DNA from: a virus
Taxonomy: Duplodnaviria; Heunggongvirae; Uroviricota; Caudoviricetes
Direction: 5' to 3' (one strand)
Length of the DNA: 40,878 nucleotides
IMG/VR virus record: IMGVR_UViG_2541047787_000006
Span: 1-40,878 of that record
Positions 5,637 to 35,547 of the stretch are shown in pieces. Position numbers and translations under genes: made by a program. A model generated the notes under the pieces. The model saw only the letters and a list, made by a program, of their open reading frames with translations, had not been told where the DNA came from and made no database searches. Numbering within the stretch: the stretch's first letter is position 1; every line of letters starts with the position of its first letter.

Positions 5637-5651
5637 TTACCTTTCAGGTGA
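5637..5651. promoter_or_regulatory. Operator-like palindrome TTACCTTTCAGGTGA
   Basis: Matches the TTACC-N5-GGTAA family found in the immunity region; an extra TTACC half-site lies at 5587-5591. Confidence 0.45.
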
Positions 5652-5727: not shown

Positions 5728-5985
5728 ATGCAGCAGTATCACTATCCACTGGAAGACGGATTTACCGAAAGGATTCACACGCCGGGAGGCGTCAGGTCAC
5801 TGGTGGAGGGATCGCACTTGATGAAATTACTCCGGGATCTCGATAAGGATGGATTTAATGTCGATGGCCCACTTGCCGAACTGACTGCACTGATTAACTA
5901 CGTCACCAGCTCACAGATGTCTATGCAGGATCTGCAAACACATCTCGACTATTGTGCCGAACAATTACGAAAACAAACCCGGTAA
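5728..5985 (+). CDS. Small protein homologous to the C-terminal domain of the antirepressor at 7373-8029; candidate SOS-induced antirepressor
   Basis: GGAGA RBS 7 nt upstream; product IHTPGGVRSLVEGSHLMKLL..DLQTH aligns with [25 protein letters not shown] of the 7373 protein; the ORF track start at 5710 is TTG without an RBS. Confidence 0.5.
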   Translation: MQQYHYPLEDGFTERIHTPGGVRSLVEGSHLMKLLRDLDKDGFNVDGPLAELTALINYVTSSQMSMQDLQTHLDYCAEQLRKQTR

Positions 5986-5992
5986 ATTTAAA

Positions 5993-6008
5993 GGCCGCAA
6001 GAGCGGCC
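5993..6008. terminator. Hairpin GGCCGC-AAGA-GCGGCC in the 24-bp gap between convergent genes
   Basis: 6-bp GC stem with tetraloop exactly between the stop codons at 5985 and 6010; no long T-run. Confidence 0.4.
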
Positions 6009-6009
6009 A

Positions 6010-6516
6010 TTAACAGTCGTAAAATTCCGGGTCCCACAAACTTGCATCGCGCGGCATGGATTCTAAATTTTTCAGCCGCAAAATTCTGTCACACTCGACA
6101 AGAAGTTTTTGTTTTTGTTCGTCAATTTCTACTTTTTTGTGTGCTGGCTCATCCCAGTAATCCAGAAGAAACGCATGTCGCTCAGACGTTACAAGATAAA
6201 TCACATACACATCACTGGTTGGTATTTTTTTATGCTTGTTGGTGGCCTTGTCTTTCTTCCCGGATGCCCAGTTTTTCCAGCATTGTTCCGTACCGCTCTC
6301 ACCAAACTTGTCAGTATAGTTTCCGATGTTTACGTGAACGTGGCGTATGTGATATTCCAGCATCTCTTTCGGTGGATCCCGAAACAGAGTGTCCTTTCCG
6401 AAATCCTTATGATGACCGTAGCGCCAGTGATCTATGAACGCGTTTTTGATAGGTATTAGCTCAGGGTCCTTCCCAAAAATTCCAGGGTGAACCAACCCCT
6501 GGAATTTATTCAGCAT
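6010..6516 (-). CDS. YafO-like toxin-domain protein (putative mRNA interferase-type toxin), module 1
   Basis: Motifs FGKD..F.DP, RHVHVN, IPTSD, VIYLVT and EPAHK resemble the YafO family as recalled from memory; paralogous to 8331-8876; start ATG at 6516 overlaps the upstream stop (ATGCTGAATAA). Confidence 0.45.
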   Translation of the reverse strand: MLNKFQGLVHPGIFGKDPELIPIKNAFIDHWRYGHHKDFGKDTLFRDPPKEMLEYHIRHVHVNIGNYTDKFGESGTEQCWKNWASGKKDKATNKHKKIPTSDVYVIYLVTSERHAFLLDYWDEPAHKKVEIDEQKQKLLVECDRILRLKNLESMPRDASLWDPEFYDC

Positions 6517-6925
6517 CGTCGTAGAGCTCCTGAGCCATATCTTCGGCAGTGCGTGCAAACATCCTGCGCGAGATTGCATGAGATTTCTCGACGGACATCT
6601 TTGGGACCTCATGCATAACATTTTTGGGAGTTGTGTAATAGCCTATTACAATTTTCACACCTGACTTATGATTAATATCAGCATAATATACTTCTTGTTC
6701 AGACGTTTCACGACGAACATAATCTGCCAGTTTTCCACATTTAAATTCCCCTCCCTGATGTTTTAAAATCTCCTCAACTGCACTATTTTCAGTGAAATAC
6801 CGAATAAGAAATTTCTGTCCAGTCTCTTCAGCATGAGGTATAACAGTATTATTGGAAGCCCGAACAATGGCCTTACTCAATATTTCATGGTCTTTATTTT
6901 TTTCTGATTTCCTCAAATGCTGCAT
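6506..6925 (-). CDS. Upstream partner of toxin-like gene (candidate antitoxin or immunity protein), no recognisable family
   Basis: 139 aa from the ATG at 6925; overlaps the downstream start by 11 nt; C-terminal tail KMSVEKSHAISRRMFARTAEDMAQELYDDAE resembles the tail of the 8177 small ORF. Confidence 0.4.
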   Translation of the reverse strand: MQHLRKSEKNKDHEILSKAIVRASNNTVIPHAEETGQKFLIRYFTENSAVEEILKHQGGEFKCGKLADYVRRETSEQEVYYADINHKSGVKIVIGYYTTPKNVMHEVPKMSVEKSHAISRRMFARTAEDMAQELYDDAE

Positions 6926-6961
6926 TACTGTAGCTCTCTTCGTGTTCACGGGCACCCCCAA

Positions 6962-6976
6962 CTACCTCTAGGGTAA
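6962..6976. promoter_or_regulatory. Operator-like palindrome CTACCTCTAGGGTAA upstream of module 1
   Basis: TTACC-N5-GGTAA family member about 40 bp upstream of the 6925 start on the minus strand; TTGCCA and TAGAAT hexamers immediately upstream on that strand. Confidence 0.45.
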
Positions 6977-7057
6977 ACATTCTATCGAAAGTATACGCAT
7001 ACTGGCAAAAAAATAGGCAGGTATTTTCTGAAATGGGATCAATCAAACCACATAGGG

Positions 7058-7101
7058 TTGAAATAACGTGAGTTATGCATTTATTATTACCTTTGCGGTA
7101 A
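7058..7101 (+). promoter_or_regulatory. Sigma70-like promoter (TTGAAA-N17-TTATTA) with overlapping operator TTACCTTTGCGGTAA at 7087-7101
   Basis: Hexamers read directly; perfect TTACC-N5-GGTAA dyad at the predicted transcription start. Confidence 0.5.
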
Positions 7102-7192
7102 ATTTACATCGCACTCCTCTTGTGCCATAGTAATCGGGCACTGGCAAAATCCAGTGCCGGGATTGGTCTCCCGGATTACTAAGTGGCGCATA

Positions 7193-7214
7193 CCACGCCA
7201 GACGTGGTTTTTTT
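7193..7214 (+). terminator. Rho-independent terminator inside the antirepressor leader
   Basis: Stem CCACG / CGTGG, loop CCAGA, followed by seven T; about 120 nt downstream of the 7058 promoter and 160 nt upstream of the 7373 start. Confidence 0.55.
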
Positions 7215-7372
7215 ATGCGTATAGCACAGTCATGCCAGAATTATGGTGGGCTGAATGGGGGTCCGAAAGGACGCCGGTACCACTTAGGCCGGTAAGACCA
7301 ACTCCGTTCAGTTCACCACCATCTGATTGGTCTCAGCGGTGGTGATGTAATTCGCTAAGTGGAGACGCCATC

Positions 7373-8029
7373 ATGAACGCTCAACTCATCCCCGTATTCA
7401 ACGGCACTATATCTAACGAAACAGCCCTACTTTGTAATGCCCGCGATCTGCACGCTTTTTTAGGTGTTAAAAAGGTGTTTGCAGCATGGATTACAAATCG
7501 CATATCAGAATACGAATTCATTGAAAATCAAGACTATATTTTGCTTTCCAATTTGGGAAAGCAAACATCTGGTAGAGGCGGCCACAACCGCAAAGAGTAC
7601 CACCTTACCCTTGATACAGCCAAAGAGCTGGCGATGGTCGAGCGTAACGAAAAAGGTCGCCAGGTGCGACGCTACTTCATTGAATGCGAGAAACGTTTAA
7701 GACAACAAGAAACAAAAGTGGAGAAGGTCTTGTCAGGCTTCATGCCCGCCATTATGGAGGCGATCAAGCTGGAAGACAAAAAAGAATACAGTGCCCCGCT
7801 GAAGCCCGGCTACCGCAGCCTGATTCATTCTCCGTCTGGTGTTCTCGGCCTGACGGAAAACTCACTGCTGATGAATCTGCTGAACCAGTTACAGGAAGAC
7901 GGGCACGACGTATCGGGCGCGGCGGCGGAGCTGACCACCATGTTCTGCTACATCGTCGGTGTGAGCAAATGCCTGCGTGATATCCAGACCCACGCGGAGT
8001 ACATCAACGACAAGGCTGGGTTCTTCTGA
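7373..8029 (+). CDS. Antirepressor, AntA/AntB-type N-terminal domain plus C-terminal domain shared with the 5728 protein
   Basis: N-terminal [34 protein letters not shown] matches the AntA antirepressor pattern; GGAG RBS at 7361. Confidence 0.7.
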
Positions 8030-8073: not shown

Positions 8074-8116
8074 TTGCAGACTGTGGGTGAATAGCGTACT
8101 ATTACCTCAAGGGTAA
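8074..8116 (+). promoter_or_regulatory. Sigma70-like promoter (TTGCAG-N17-TACTAT) with overlapping operator TTACCTCAAGGGTAA at 8102-8116
   Basis: Same promoter-operator architecture as at 7058 and 35639. Confidence 0.45.
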
Positions 8117-8176
8117 ACGGATTGGTTTCATTTTTATTAATCCGTGTAATGAACTTATGAGATATGAGGTAATGTC

Positions 8177-8356
8177 ATGCGAAACGAAAAATTGCAGATG
8201 CGTAGAGCGCAAGCTGCCGCAAGACGTTCTTTCAATGGAAGCGTAGAGTACGTAAAAGTTACTATGACAAAAGATCACGCAAGTCGCGTATCCAGCGCTT
8301 TCTTTGATTCTCGTAACAATAAGGAAAATTATGAGTTCGTCTGCGTCGCAGAATGA
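8177..8356 (+). CDS. Small 59-aa protein overlapping the start of toxin-like gene (candidate antitoxin), module 2
   Basis: Not in the ORF track (under 60 aa); GAGG RBS at 8166-8169, ATG at 8177; overlaps the 8331 gene by 26 nt; tail KVTMTKDHASRVSSAFF...VAE resembles the C-terminus of the 6506-6925 product. Confidence 0.35.
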   Translation: MRNEKLQMRRAQAAARRSFNGSVEYVKVTMTKDHASRVSSAFFDSRNNKENYEFVCVAE

Positions 8357-8876
8357 TAAAAATCAAATTGTCAGATATAAGGGTCGAGTATTGCATACGC
8401 AAAATTTCTCGGCCCTTTGTGCATCTGATCTTGAGCTGAAGAAAGTATCTGATGCCTTTGCCCAGTATTGGAAAACGGGATACCATCCATCTCTTGGTAA
8501 AGATGCTGCATTTGCTCGTCCGACAGAAATGCTTAAACTAAATGTCAGGCATACTCATGTCGATAACCAAGACTATATTCCAGAAGATAGTGATAAAAAA
8601 CACACTGGTAAAAAATCATCTTGGGATGCATGGAAAAATATAGCGTCTGTACAAGTAAAATGCATACCAACAAGTGATTGCTTTTTAGTTTATTCGGTAA
8701 ATCACAATCGTGATGCGCTGGTTATGTTTTTTGTTGACGCAGATGCTCACAACATAACTGAGCAAGAAGAGTTTAAAGAGGCAGCAATCACTATCAGTTA
8801 TCAATTCTTTGAGAAAACAAAAACAGAACCAATGCCTTTAGAAGAAGATCTTTTTTCTGATAAATGGAAGGAATAG
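8331..8876 (+). CDS. YafO-like toxin-domain protein, module 2 (paralog of 6010-6516)
   Basis: AAGGA RBS 5 nt upstream of the ATG at 8331; shares W.TGYH, LGKD..F.RP.EML, RHTHVD, IPTSD, LVYSV and DAHN motifs with the 6010 product. Confidence 0.45.
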   Translation: MSSSASQNDKNQIVRYKGRVLHTQNFSALCASDLELKKVSDAFAQYWKTGYHPSLGKDAAFARPTEMLKLNVRHTHVDNQDYIPEDSDKKHTGKKSSWDAWKNIASVQVKCIPTSDCFLVYSVNHNRDALVMFFVDADAHNITEQEEFKEAAITISYQFFEKTKTEPMPLEEDLFSDKWKE

Positions 8877-8968
8877 CCCGCGGCGCGGGCTTTTTTGTGG
8901 ACGAAACAAAAGTCAGTGCTACACTCATTAACGCCACATTGAGGTGGCTTATAGATGGAAATTTCACA

Positions 8969-9130
8969 ATGAAAAAAGCATTTGCTGCACTGTTCGTTTT
9001 GTTGTCTCTGGTAGCTTCAACTCAGGCCTTTGCCGGTCGTTGTCAGCACGACAGCGATACTGCCGCTGACGGCTCCCGCTGCGGTGGGCGTTCTGCGGAT
9101 TCCCGCCCGGGCGGCGGTGGCATTCGTTAA
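8969..9130 (+). CDS. Small secreted Cys-containing peptide (53 aa), function unknown
   Basis: Internal ATG at 8969 gives signal peptide MKKAFAALFVLLSLVASTQAFA followed by a Gly/Arg/Cys-rich tail; terminator-like hairpin directly downstream. Confidence 0.35.
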   Translation: MKKAFAALFVLLSLVASTQAFAGRCQHDSDTAADGSRCGGRSADSRPGGGGIR

Positions 9131-9166: not shown

Positions 9167-9727
9167 CTACATTGATATATGATTCATAAAGTAGCTTAAA
9201 GATTTACTTCCCAGAAAAGAAATTTCTTTTCCTGGATATGTCGCAATAATTGAGCATGACTTATCCCCGTTAGAGGTAACAAATCCTGAATAACCTACTT
9301 GTTCTTTACCATTTTGTTGCTTGGCTAAAAAGTAGAGGTAGCTTATCTTTTTGCCCTCTGGGTAAAACTCTGCCAAACCAGTATCGGTGATTGAATATTT
9401 TATTCTCCCGCCTTGAGTAACGTTTTCCATCTCAAGTTTAGCTATGTCTTTTCTGTTGTATTCAGCATTGATTTTCCTTTCGAAATCAATATTGTTTTCA
9501 AATGAGTAGGAAGCAACAGTCTGAATAGATGGGAACACGTTTATCTGGATGCCTCCACAGTCGGCACAGGTATAAAGGTATGAATCAGATGGAATCCCCA
9601 TAAAAGAAAACTGAGTTACCTTAAATTTATCGCTATCTCCAAAGTATTGAAGTTCGCATTTAACATTTTGCCCTGCAAAAGAAAATGCAGACATCAATAT
9701 TGAAACAAAAAATATAATTGCCTTCAT
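9167..9727 (-). CDS. Secreted or periplasmic protein of unknown function (moron)
   Basis: Signal peptide MKAIIFFVSILMSAFSFA; 4 Cys; markedly AT-rich gene between core-protein gene and cargo island. Confidence 0.55.
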   Translation of the reverse strand: MKAIIFFVSILMSAFSFAGQNVKCELQYFGDSDKFKVTQFSFMGIPSDSYLYTCADCGGIQINVFPSIQTVASYSFENNIDFERKINAEYNRKDIAKLEMENVTQGGRIKYSITDTGLAEFYPEGKKISYLYFLAKQQNGKEQVGYSGFVTSNGDKSCSIIATYPGKEISFLGSKSLSYFMNHISM

Positions 9728-34962: not shown

Positions 34963-35547
34963 ATGAAAAGTATCCAGGACGTCCGCAGGCAAAATCTCAA
35001 CGACTTGATCGACCGTGAATTCAATGGTGTTCAGACGCGGATGGCAGAAAAACTTGGAACTCAGGCAAATCTGGTAAACCGCTGGGCTCTTGGCAAGAAG
35101 GTTATCGGCGACCAGGTTGCGCGAAAAATTGAAGCTGCCGCAAATAAACCCCGTAACTGGCTTGATATCGATCGCTCGCTTTCTCAGGAGGGTTTTCAGC
35201 CTGTCGGCCCAAGCGACATTGGTCAGCTGGCGGCTCACAACCTGGAACGCTGGATGAGCGAAAGCCGCGACCTTTCAACTCAGGGAAAACTTCACCGCGC
35301 ATCCGGCGTCGCCCAGGTGACAATCAGCCGCCTGTTAAACAATGAGGTCAGCGTTTCCATTTCCACCCTGGAGAATGTTGCATCCGCATTCGGGCGTCAC
35401 GGCTATGAATTACTGATTCACCCGCACGACCCTGCGACTATCAACTATGATCGCTCGCGCTACGCATTGTTACCCGAAACCGAGAAAGCAAAGATCGAAA
35501 GTTACATTGAATTTGTCATCAACCAGAACGAAAAAAACAAACAATAA
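34963..35547 (+). CDS. Prophage repressor candidate with two HTH motifs and no peptidase domain
   Basis: Two HTH-like segments (QANLVNRWALGKK and GVAQVTISRLLNNE); no recognisable S24-type cleavage module; divergent from cro. Confidence 0.55.
   Translation: MKSIQDVRRQNLNDLIDREFNGVQTRMAEKLGTQANLVNRWALGKKVIGDQVARKIEAAANKPRNWLDIDRSLSQEGFQPVGPSDIGQLAAHNLERWMSESRDLSTQGKLHRASGVAQVTISRLLNNEVSVSISTLENVASAFGRHGYELLIHPHDPATINYDRSRYALLPETEKAKIESYIEFVINQNEKNKQ

Follow-up and report, generated by a model that had tools for sequence, protein, structure and literature searches.

RelB, HigA2 and YafN-type antitoxins neutralise toxins by means of a C-terminal helix that wraps over the toxin. YafO, encoded with YafN in the dinB-yafNOP operon of Escherichia coli and represented by Pfam family PF13957, is an mRNA-degrading toxin with the BECR fold (PMC11980606; PMC2814082), the ribosome dependence of which is disputed (PMC11980606). 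Here we compare with this system a pair of overlapping genes from a 40,878-nucleotide (nt) stretch of viral DNA (IMG/VR record IMGVR_UViG_2541047787_000006; hereafter the window), which is an epsilon15/phiV10-type (Uetakevirus) prophage of E. coli. The downstream gene encodes a toxin-like protein, T1, and the upstream gene encodes a partner that is the putative antitoxin (Table 1). Our preferred reading, which we hold to be probable rather than secure, is that the two form a type II toxin-antitoxin pair of the YafO family that is damped by the prophage repressor in the lysogen and made mainly at infection or induction.

Both genes lie on the minus strand with an overlap of 11 nt, as given in a preliminary description of this DNA. 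The partner had there been read as 139 amino acids (aa) from an ATG at 6925. This was corrected to 147 aa (6506-6949), since homologues begin with MNTKR where the window has GTG 6949, this codon being mostly an ATG in them, and the Prokaryotic Genome Annotation Pipeline (PGAP) gives 444 nt for a 99.9%-identical partner gene. Two small, co-directional and overlapping genes that strictly co-occur are the layout of type II toxin-antitoxin loci and the pair is, judged by this layout, built like such an operon.

All motifs on which the suspected YafO likeness had been based (FGKDTLF, RHVHV, IPTSD and EPAHK) are found in T1, which is indeed longer than E. coli YafO (168 versus 132 aa). Pairwise similarity is weak, with BLASTP giving E 0.002 over 54 aa. 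A profile of the T1 family was aligned by hhalign with 16 canonical YafO sequences at E 3.6e-6 over 110 columns (YafO 15-131), placing FG[KR]D, xHxH, T[SN]D and PxxHK in register, and the motifs common to T1 and YafO are invariant within the T1 family. PF13957 is matched at E<=1 by 11 of the 13 aligned T1 family members (best 1.1e-5), and T2, a paralogue encoded in the same window (8331-8876; 31% identity to T1, E 4e-23), narrowly passes its cut-off (25.7 versus 25 bits). The evidence that makes T1 a YafO homologue is thus at the level of its family, from the hhalign result, T2 and these 11 members; T1 itself lacks a Pfam match. The predicted structure of T1 has the RelE/ParE-superfamily (BECR) fold. 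T1 belongs to PHROG phrog_1651 (function unannotated) and the NCBI pipeline and RefSeq name it "type II toxin-antitoxin system YafO family toxin", so the toxin assignment is already known. The ratio of non-synonymous to synonymous substitution rates (dN/dS or omega) of the toxin gene is about 0.02-0.05 in diverged pairs, which equals purifying selection. A profile search of the PDB yielded no YafO chain; the only match, obtained for the T1 family as well as for YafO, was a designed repeat that we judged spurious. Nothing significant was found with T1 in a BFVD viral fold search. We conclude that T1 is a divergent, longer YafO-family protein with a BECR fold. By analogy with YafO and HigB we infer that it would be toxic and would cleave mRNA in association with the ribosome, with the family-invariant residues D42, H61 and H126 as candidate catalytic residues.

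The partner had been described as unusual and without resemblance to any recognised family. The latter was borne out, as no match was found in Pfam, NCBIfam, PADLOC or PDB profile searches and the sole family match is PHROG phrog_9503 (4e-88; function unannotated). The family is rare, since a profile search returned only 21 relatives among 1.84e9 representative proteins. The partner is no one-off, as it represents one of several alleles in a family of modular, constant-tailed proteins: the last ~36 residues are near-invariant (...EVPKMSVEKSxAISRRMFARTAEDMAQELYDDAE), and the body that precedes them is radically different among alleles, the unrelated bodies numbering ten or more. Neither Pfam nor PDB profile searches revealed a DNA-binding domain, and the partner does not qualify as a YafN-type (Phd/YefM) antitoxin. 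A likeness between the tail and the C-terminus of YafN, convincing by eye, was not claimed: a hidden Markov model of 32 tails ranked YafN 1619th of 5001 when set against shuffles, and an ungapped test anchored at the C-terminus was marginal (z 3.1, p ~0.0025).

With the toxin-family profile 36 viral-contig loci were collected, which together with five others gave a set of 41 loci. Each of the 41 has an upstream partner that overlaps the toxin gene, by 11, 14 or 4 nt. The toxins split into clades, every one of which has its own tail type, and the types of body cross clade boundaries. Identity of the toxins correlates with that of the tails (Spearman 0.87), and where toxins are at least 90% identical the tails have a mean identity of 97% versus 55% for the bodies (minimum 24%); loci L031 and L003 share 50% of their body, 39% of their toxin and 25% of their tail. 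The conservation of the tail is more than a matter of recent ancestry, since across alleles synonymous divergence (dS) is saturated (1-2) while non-synonymous divergence (dN) is only 0-0.1 (omega 0-0.08). In the anchored test, the tails of clades I to IV proved to be related to one another (z 6-7.4). In locus L019 the toxin DNA differs from that of the window by a dS of only 0.02, but the tail dS is 0.53 and the body has ~35% protein identity, as does that of the near-identical allele L021; this puts a recombination breakpoint near the tail/toxin junction. Pervasive positive selection on the body is unsupported, pairwise omega being 0.3-0.6. These computations show that the body evolves fast and is exchanged by recombination, with the tail co-varying with the toxin clade. 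The conserved tail, its co-variation with the toxin and a predicted helix at residues 120-146 fit a partner that is an antitoxin, with the C-terminal helix as neutralising element and the body as replaceable module.

The same data can be read as those of a selfish addiction cassette or a passenger of recombination, maintained by costly loss or by hitch-hiking without benefit to phage or host, in which the body is a weakly constrained linker. Its patchy, low occurrence (58 of 5426 complete E. coli genomes, about 1%, next to the few partner representatives), the poor structure prediction and omega values of the body and breakpoints near the tail/toxin junction all agree with this. It accounts less well for strong purifying selection on toxin and tail over saturated dS, for conserved operator placement and for the retention of two paralogous pairs in one phage, and we consider it unlikely.

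Transcription of the operon is predicted to start from a promoter that is near-identical across clade I loci with differing partner bodies. The putative operator begins 3 nt past the -10 hexamer and spans the expected transcription start and the 5' untranslated region. This dyad, already pointed out in the preliminary description, was not picked up by a generic inverted-repeat scan; it was recognised by aligning the upstream regions of divergent loci, which share a conserved TTACC-N5-GGTAA straight after the -10. Allowing at most one mismatch, the motif is present far beyond chance, since there are 14 copies in the window versus 0.68 expected, a number that was not attained in any of 100 shuffles. 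Most copies directly follow -10-like hexamers ahead of operons. Besides the copy on the T1 operon there are copies upstream of open reading frame (ORF) 5728-5985, on the divergent c4/ant promoter (7087-7101), on a second YafO pair (8102-8116) and in front of an early operon beside the repressor gene. The pairs 34845/34893 and 35605/35667 flank this helix-turn-helix (HTH) repressor gene (34963-35547); the copy at 9351, within an ORF, may be a chance occurrence.

The operator assignment was based on the feature table of epsilon15 RefSeq entry NC_004775.2, which annotates the same motif as "protein_bind: repressor; lysogeny" and where it fronts the terminase, structural and lysis operons. The 14 copies would be a dispersed operator regulon as annotated there. 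The 194-aa HTH protein of the window is 100% identical to the repressor of phiV10 and vB_EcoP_ZX5, overexpression of which left no free phage and brought lysis-gene transcripts down by ~99.9% (PMC9782041). The isolated phage EC.W1-9, which carries the same pair with both genes annotated "hypothetical", has the same four operator sites. Control of the operon by the prophage repressor through the putative operator, as suspected from the start, is thus well founded on motif count, epsilon15 annotation and the identical repressor. Each of the 13 type-a loci has the variant half-site GGTAG 27 nt ahead of its partner start, twelve with one mismatch and L019 with two, and 33 of 42 loci have an operator with at most one mismatch upstream of the partner gene. 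All partner types except type b keep the operator and regulation may differ by allele; in the type-b loci (L003, L011, L027, L028, L031 and L032; partner type MH.TK[KR]AGP) the best operator match is CTACAATTTAGGTAC, with 3 mismatches. Alleles whose bodies are unrelated nevertheless have a constant promoter and operator, which speaks against the view that the body is a DNA-binding domain for allele-specific autoregulation.

Several results weigh against the preferred reading. T1 itself has no Pfam or NCBIfam match, even at E<=1, and does not reach the PF13957 gathering threshold (25 bits); the hhalign probability is 87.5%, below 95%. Foldseek searches of the PDB with T1 gave nothing significant, the best entry being the HigBA2 complex 5jaa at E 0.25. 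AlphaFold2 (AF2) predicts the partner, when folded alone, with a predicted local distance difference test (pLDDT) score of 51, and only the helix at 120-146 is better predicted (66-78); as a consequence the model of a wrapping helix rests on conservation and analogy. None of six scanned proteins, T1, partner and T2 included, matches a PADLOC-DB v2 model at E<=1, which leaves the suggested defence module without a profile match. Finally, control by the repressor does not extend to every locus, as no good operator is present in the six of type b.

Part of this would also be expected if there were no toxin-antitoxin system at all, T1 being a factor of the immI region that has the RelE fold but is not toxic and binds RNA or regulates, and the partner an unrelated, co-translated phage protein. 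T1 falls short of Pfam thresholds and Foldseek significance, has ~36 residues more than YafO including an inserted helix, and its operon adjoins the c4/isrK-ant immunity region. Such a factor is nonetheless very improbable in view of the motifs that are common to YafO and invariant in the T1 family, the co-variation of tail and toxin and the fact that the toxin was never found without partner in the 41 loci.

A further alternative, abortive infection that protects the lysogen, is directly affected by the operator. According to this explanation the pair is leakily expressed in the lysogen until an unrelated incoming phage, by shutting off host transcription or by binding the variable partner body, triggers loss of the labile partner, upon which the mRNase would kill the cell too early for that phage to mature. 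The pair is prophage cargo at a variable slot, its body is fast-evolving and swapped between clades as expected of an arms-race surface, the conserved imperfect GGTAG could permit leak, type-b alleles lack the operator, and prophage genes similar to yafO have been put forward as candidates for defence (PMC9836087). Yet an operator on the transcription start, with the motif that also fronts the early operon beside the repressor gene and, in epsilon15, the terminase, structural and lysis operons, predicts that the operon is damped in the lysogen, which argues against a simple, always-on protective role; the lack of a PADLOC match and a mean body omega below 1 point in the same direction. We regard it as a somewhat unlikely explanation. 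Abortive-infection defence, lytic-phase conflict or kill-switch, and mere addiction could all be the role of the pair; if we had to choose, we would favour conflict between phages, or a kill-switch that acts on entry or induction, over a constitutive protection of the lysogen.

In the toxin-antitoxin pair as we prefer to see it, the prophage repressor would damp transcription in the lysogen, with the imperfect half-site GGTAG possibly allowing some leak. The overlapping frames and the separate GGAG before the toxin start may set a safe partner-to-toxin ratio, and the C-terminal helix of the partner would, by analogy, wrap over the toxin and neutralise the mRNase. A bolder version, which we find doubtful, makes the partner a two-part switch that combines a constant clamp on the mRNase with a fast-evolving sensor body, repressor-gated and armed only at infection or induction; the body might for example bind a protein of a competing phage or the host. 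If true, this would be a phage-borne, repressor-timed and sensor-coupled mRNA interferase for phage-phage or phage-host conflict.

The pair lies in the AT-rich island that the preliminary description had noticed, GC content being 0.36-0.49 across 3-10 kb, and ~0.40-0.44 in the region of the pair, versus ~0.51 elsewhere. The module is optional cargo, since its slot is empty in phiV10 and holds an unrelated 242-aa protein in TL-2011b. With promoter, operator, two genes and terminator, the cassette is a self-contained accessory operon in the immI/cargo region. The content of this slot, which lies between the gp19 homologue described below and the antirepressor gene, varies among phages, from nothing in phiV10 (L052) to the T1 pair in the window. 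The TL-2011b protein (L002, 2508-3236) has a hydrophobic N-terminal segment and a Cys-rich C-terminus, and a gene in L013 (1274-2002) matches its gene in size and position.

Among the neighbouring features (Table 1), the region 7125-7323 corresponds to an immI (c4/ant) control region of the P1 type, here in a podophage, and an operator of its own is present at 7087-7101. ORF 5728-5985 (plus strand, 85 aa) encodes a homologue of epsilon15 gp19 and phiV10 gp24 (phrog_450), with its own operator at 5637. Over 74 aa its product shares 42% identity with the C-terminal domain of the AntA antirepressor-like protein (7373-8029), of which it seems to be a stand-alone copy. The slot of the second YafO pair is in other genomes occupied by a clade III pair (108 aa + 170 aa). 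Further cargo comprises a minus-strand ORF (9167-9727; 186 aa, phrog_11983, function unannotated) and a plus-strand ORF at ~8969-9130 for a peptide of ~53 aa (MKKAFAALFVLLSLVASTQAFAG...), both with a signal-peptide-like N-terminus. The peptide sits where TL-2011b has an annotated 53-aa "putative transmembrane anchored protein", a match by position.

Table 1. Positions of the T1 operon and of other features in the window
Feature	Position	Strand	Remarks
Toxin gene (T1)	6010..6516	-	168 aa + stop; divergent YafO family, RelE/HigB BECR fold
Partner (putative antitoxin) gene	6506..6949	-	147 aa from a GTG; N-terminus (MNTKR...) basic, body fast-evolving, C-terminal tail conserved
Codons of C-terminal tail (residues 112-147, ...EVPKMSVEKSHAISRRMFARTAEDMAQELYDDAE)	6509..6616	-	Inferred toxin-neutralising helix
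11-nt overlap ATGCTGAATAA, toxin start within partner end	6516-6506	-	Read from sequence
GGAG, 10 nt ahead of toxin ATG	6530-6527	-	Read from sequence
Terminator-like hairpin GGCCGCTCTTGCGGCC, then TTTAAATTTA	5993..6008	-	Predicted by pattern scan; T-run weak; directly after toxin stop
Predicted sigma-70-type promoter: -35 TTGCCA (7008-7003), 18-nt spacer, -10 TAGAAT (6984-6979)	6979..7008	-	Consensus scan 10/12
Putative repressor operator TTACC-CTAGA-GGTAG	6962..6976	.	One mismatch to TTACC-N5-GGTAA; 5-bp arms
Copies of TTACC-N5-GGTAA	5637, 6962, 7087, 8102, 9351, 25906, 29089, 29107, 32500, 32562, 34845, 34893, 35605, 35667		
isrK Hfq-binding RNA	7138-7214	+	Rfam, 67.7 bits
C4 antisense RNA	7239-7323	+	Rfam, 61.2 bits
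c4 a1b1 targets	7125-7177	+	Rfam, 39.9 bits, below gathering score
AntA antirepressor-like gene	7373-8029		RNA matches lie between T1 operon and this gene
Second YafO-family pair, region	8074-8891	+	Across the antirepressor gene from the T1 operon
Second-pair promoter TTGCAG-17-TACTAT with perfect repressor operator after -10	Operator 8102-8116	+	
Second-pair partner ORF	8177-8356	+	59 aa, overlapping T2; phrog_6685
Second-pair toxin T2	8331-8876	+	181 aa; phrog_1651; 31% identical to T1
Second-pair terminator	8875-8891	+	

YafO is among the least understood toxins of E. coli, and the T1 branch offers a confident structural model and invariant residues. The partner series, with its constant tail of ~36 residues and exchanged body, is ready-made for mapping the minimal neutralising element and also suits the question of what the variable body does. 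An operator on the promoter predicts that the toxin-antitoxin pair is switched on with the lytic programme and not in the lysogen, which if confirmed would change the interpretation of such prophage "morons". The partner family, its design of constant tail and variable body, the paired YafO modules that flank an antirepressor gene and the repressor operator on the promoter are undescribed in the literature we retrieved.

Compared with YafN-YafO, T1 is homologous over nearly all of YafO and shares FG[KR]D, xHxH and PxxHK, and in both systems the antitoxin gene precedes the toxin gene. T1 differs by an inserted helix and terminal extensions, with ~22% identity in the profile alignment, and its partner lacks the Phd/YefM domain and is not significantly similar to YafN in sequence. 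The genes overlap, whereas yafN and yafO are separated, and are preceded by a prophage repressor operator rather than placed in the chromosomal dinB operon. The ribosome-dependent RelE-superfamily mRNases HigB2 (with HigA2, Vibrio cholerae) and HigB1 (Mycobacterium tuberculosis) have ~14% identity to T1 and no significant Foldseek match; in higBA loci the toxin gene comes first and the antitoxins are HTH proteins. The second pair of the window and the clade II and III pairs of other Uetakevirus prophages have toxins of the same family and are laid out alike, with an upstream partner that overlaps the toxin gene, an operator behind the -10 and a final terminator, but differ in partner length (59-183 aa) and in a tail type specific to the toxin clade. 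The operator motif is that of the dispersed operators annotated in epsilon15 (ATTACC-N5-GGTAAT), except that the predicted site of the T1 operon has the conserved imperfect half GGTAG. The C4 RNA, a1b1 targets and isrK-like RNA between this operon and the antirepressor gene are analogous to phage P1, with its C1 operators and c4/ant immI region. On present evidence the T1 pair is related to a known system but is itself still uncharacterised.
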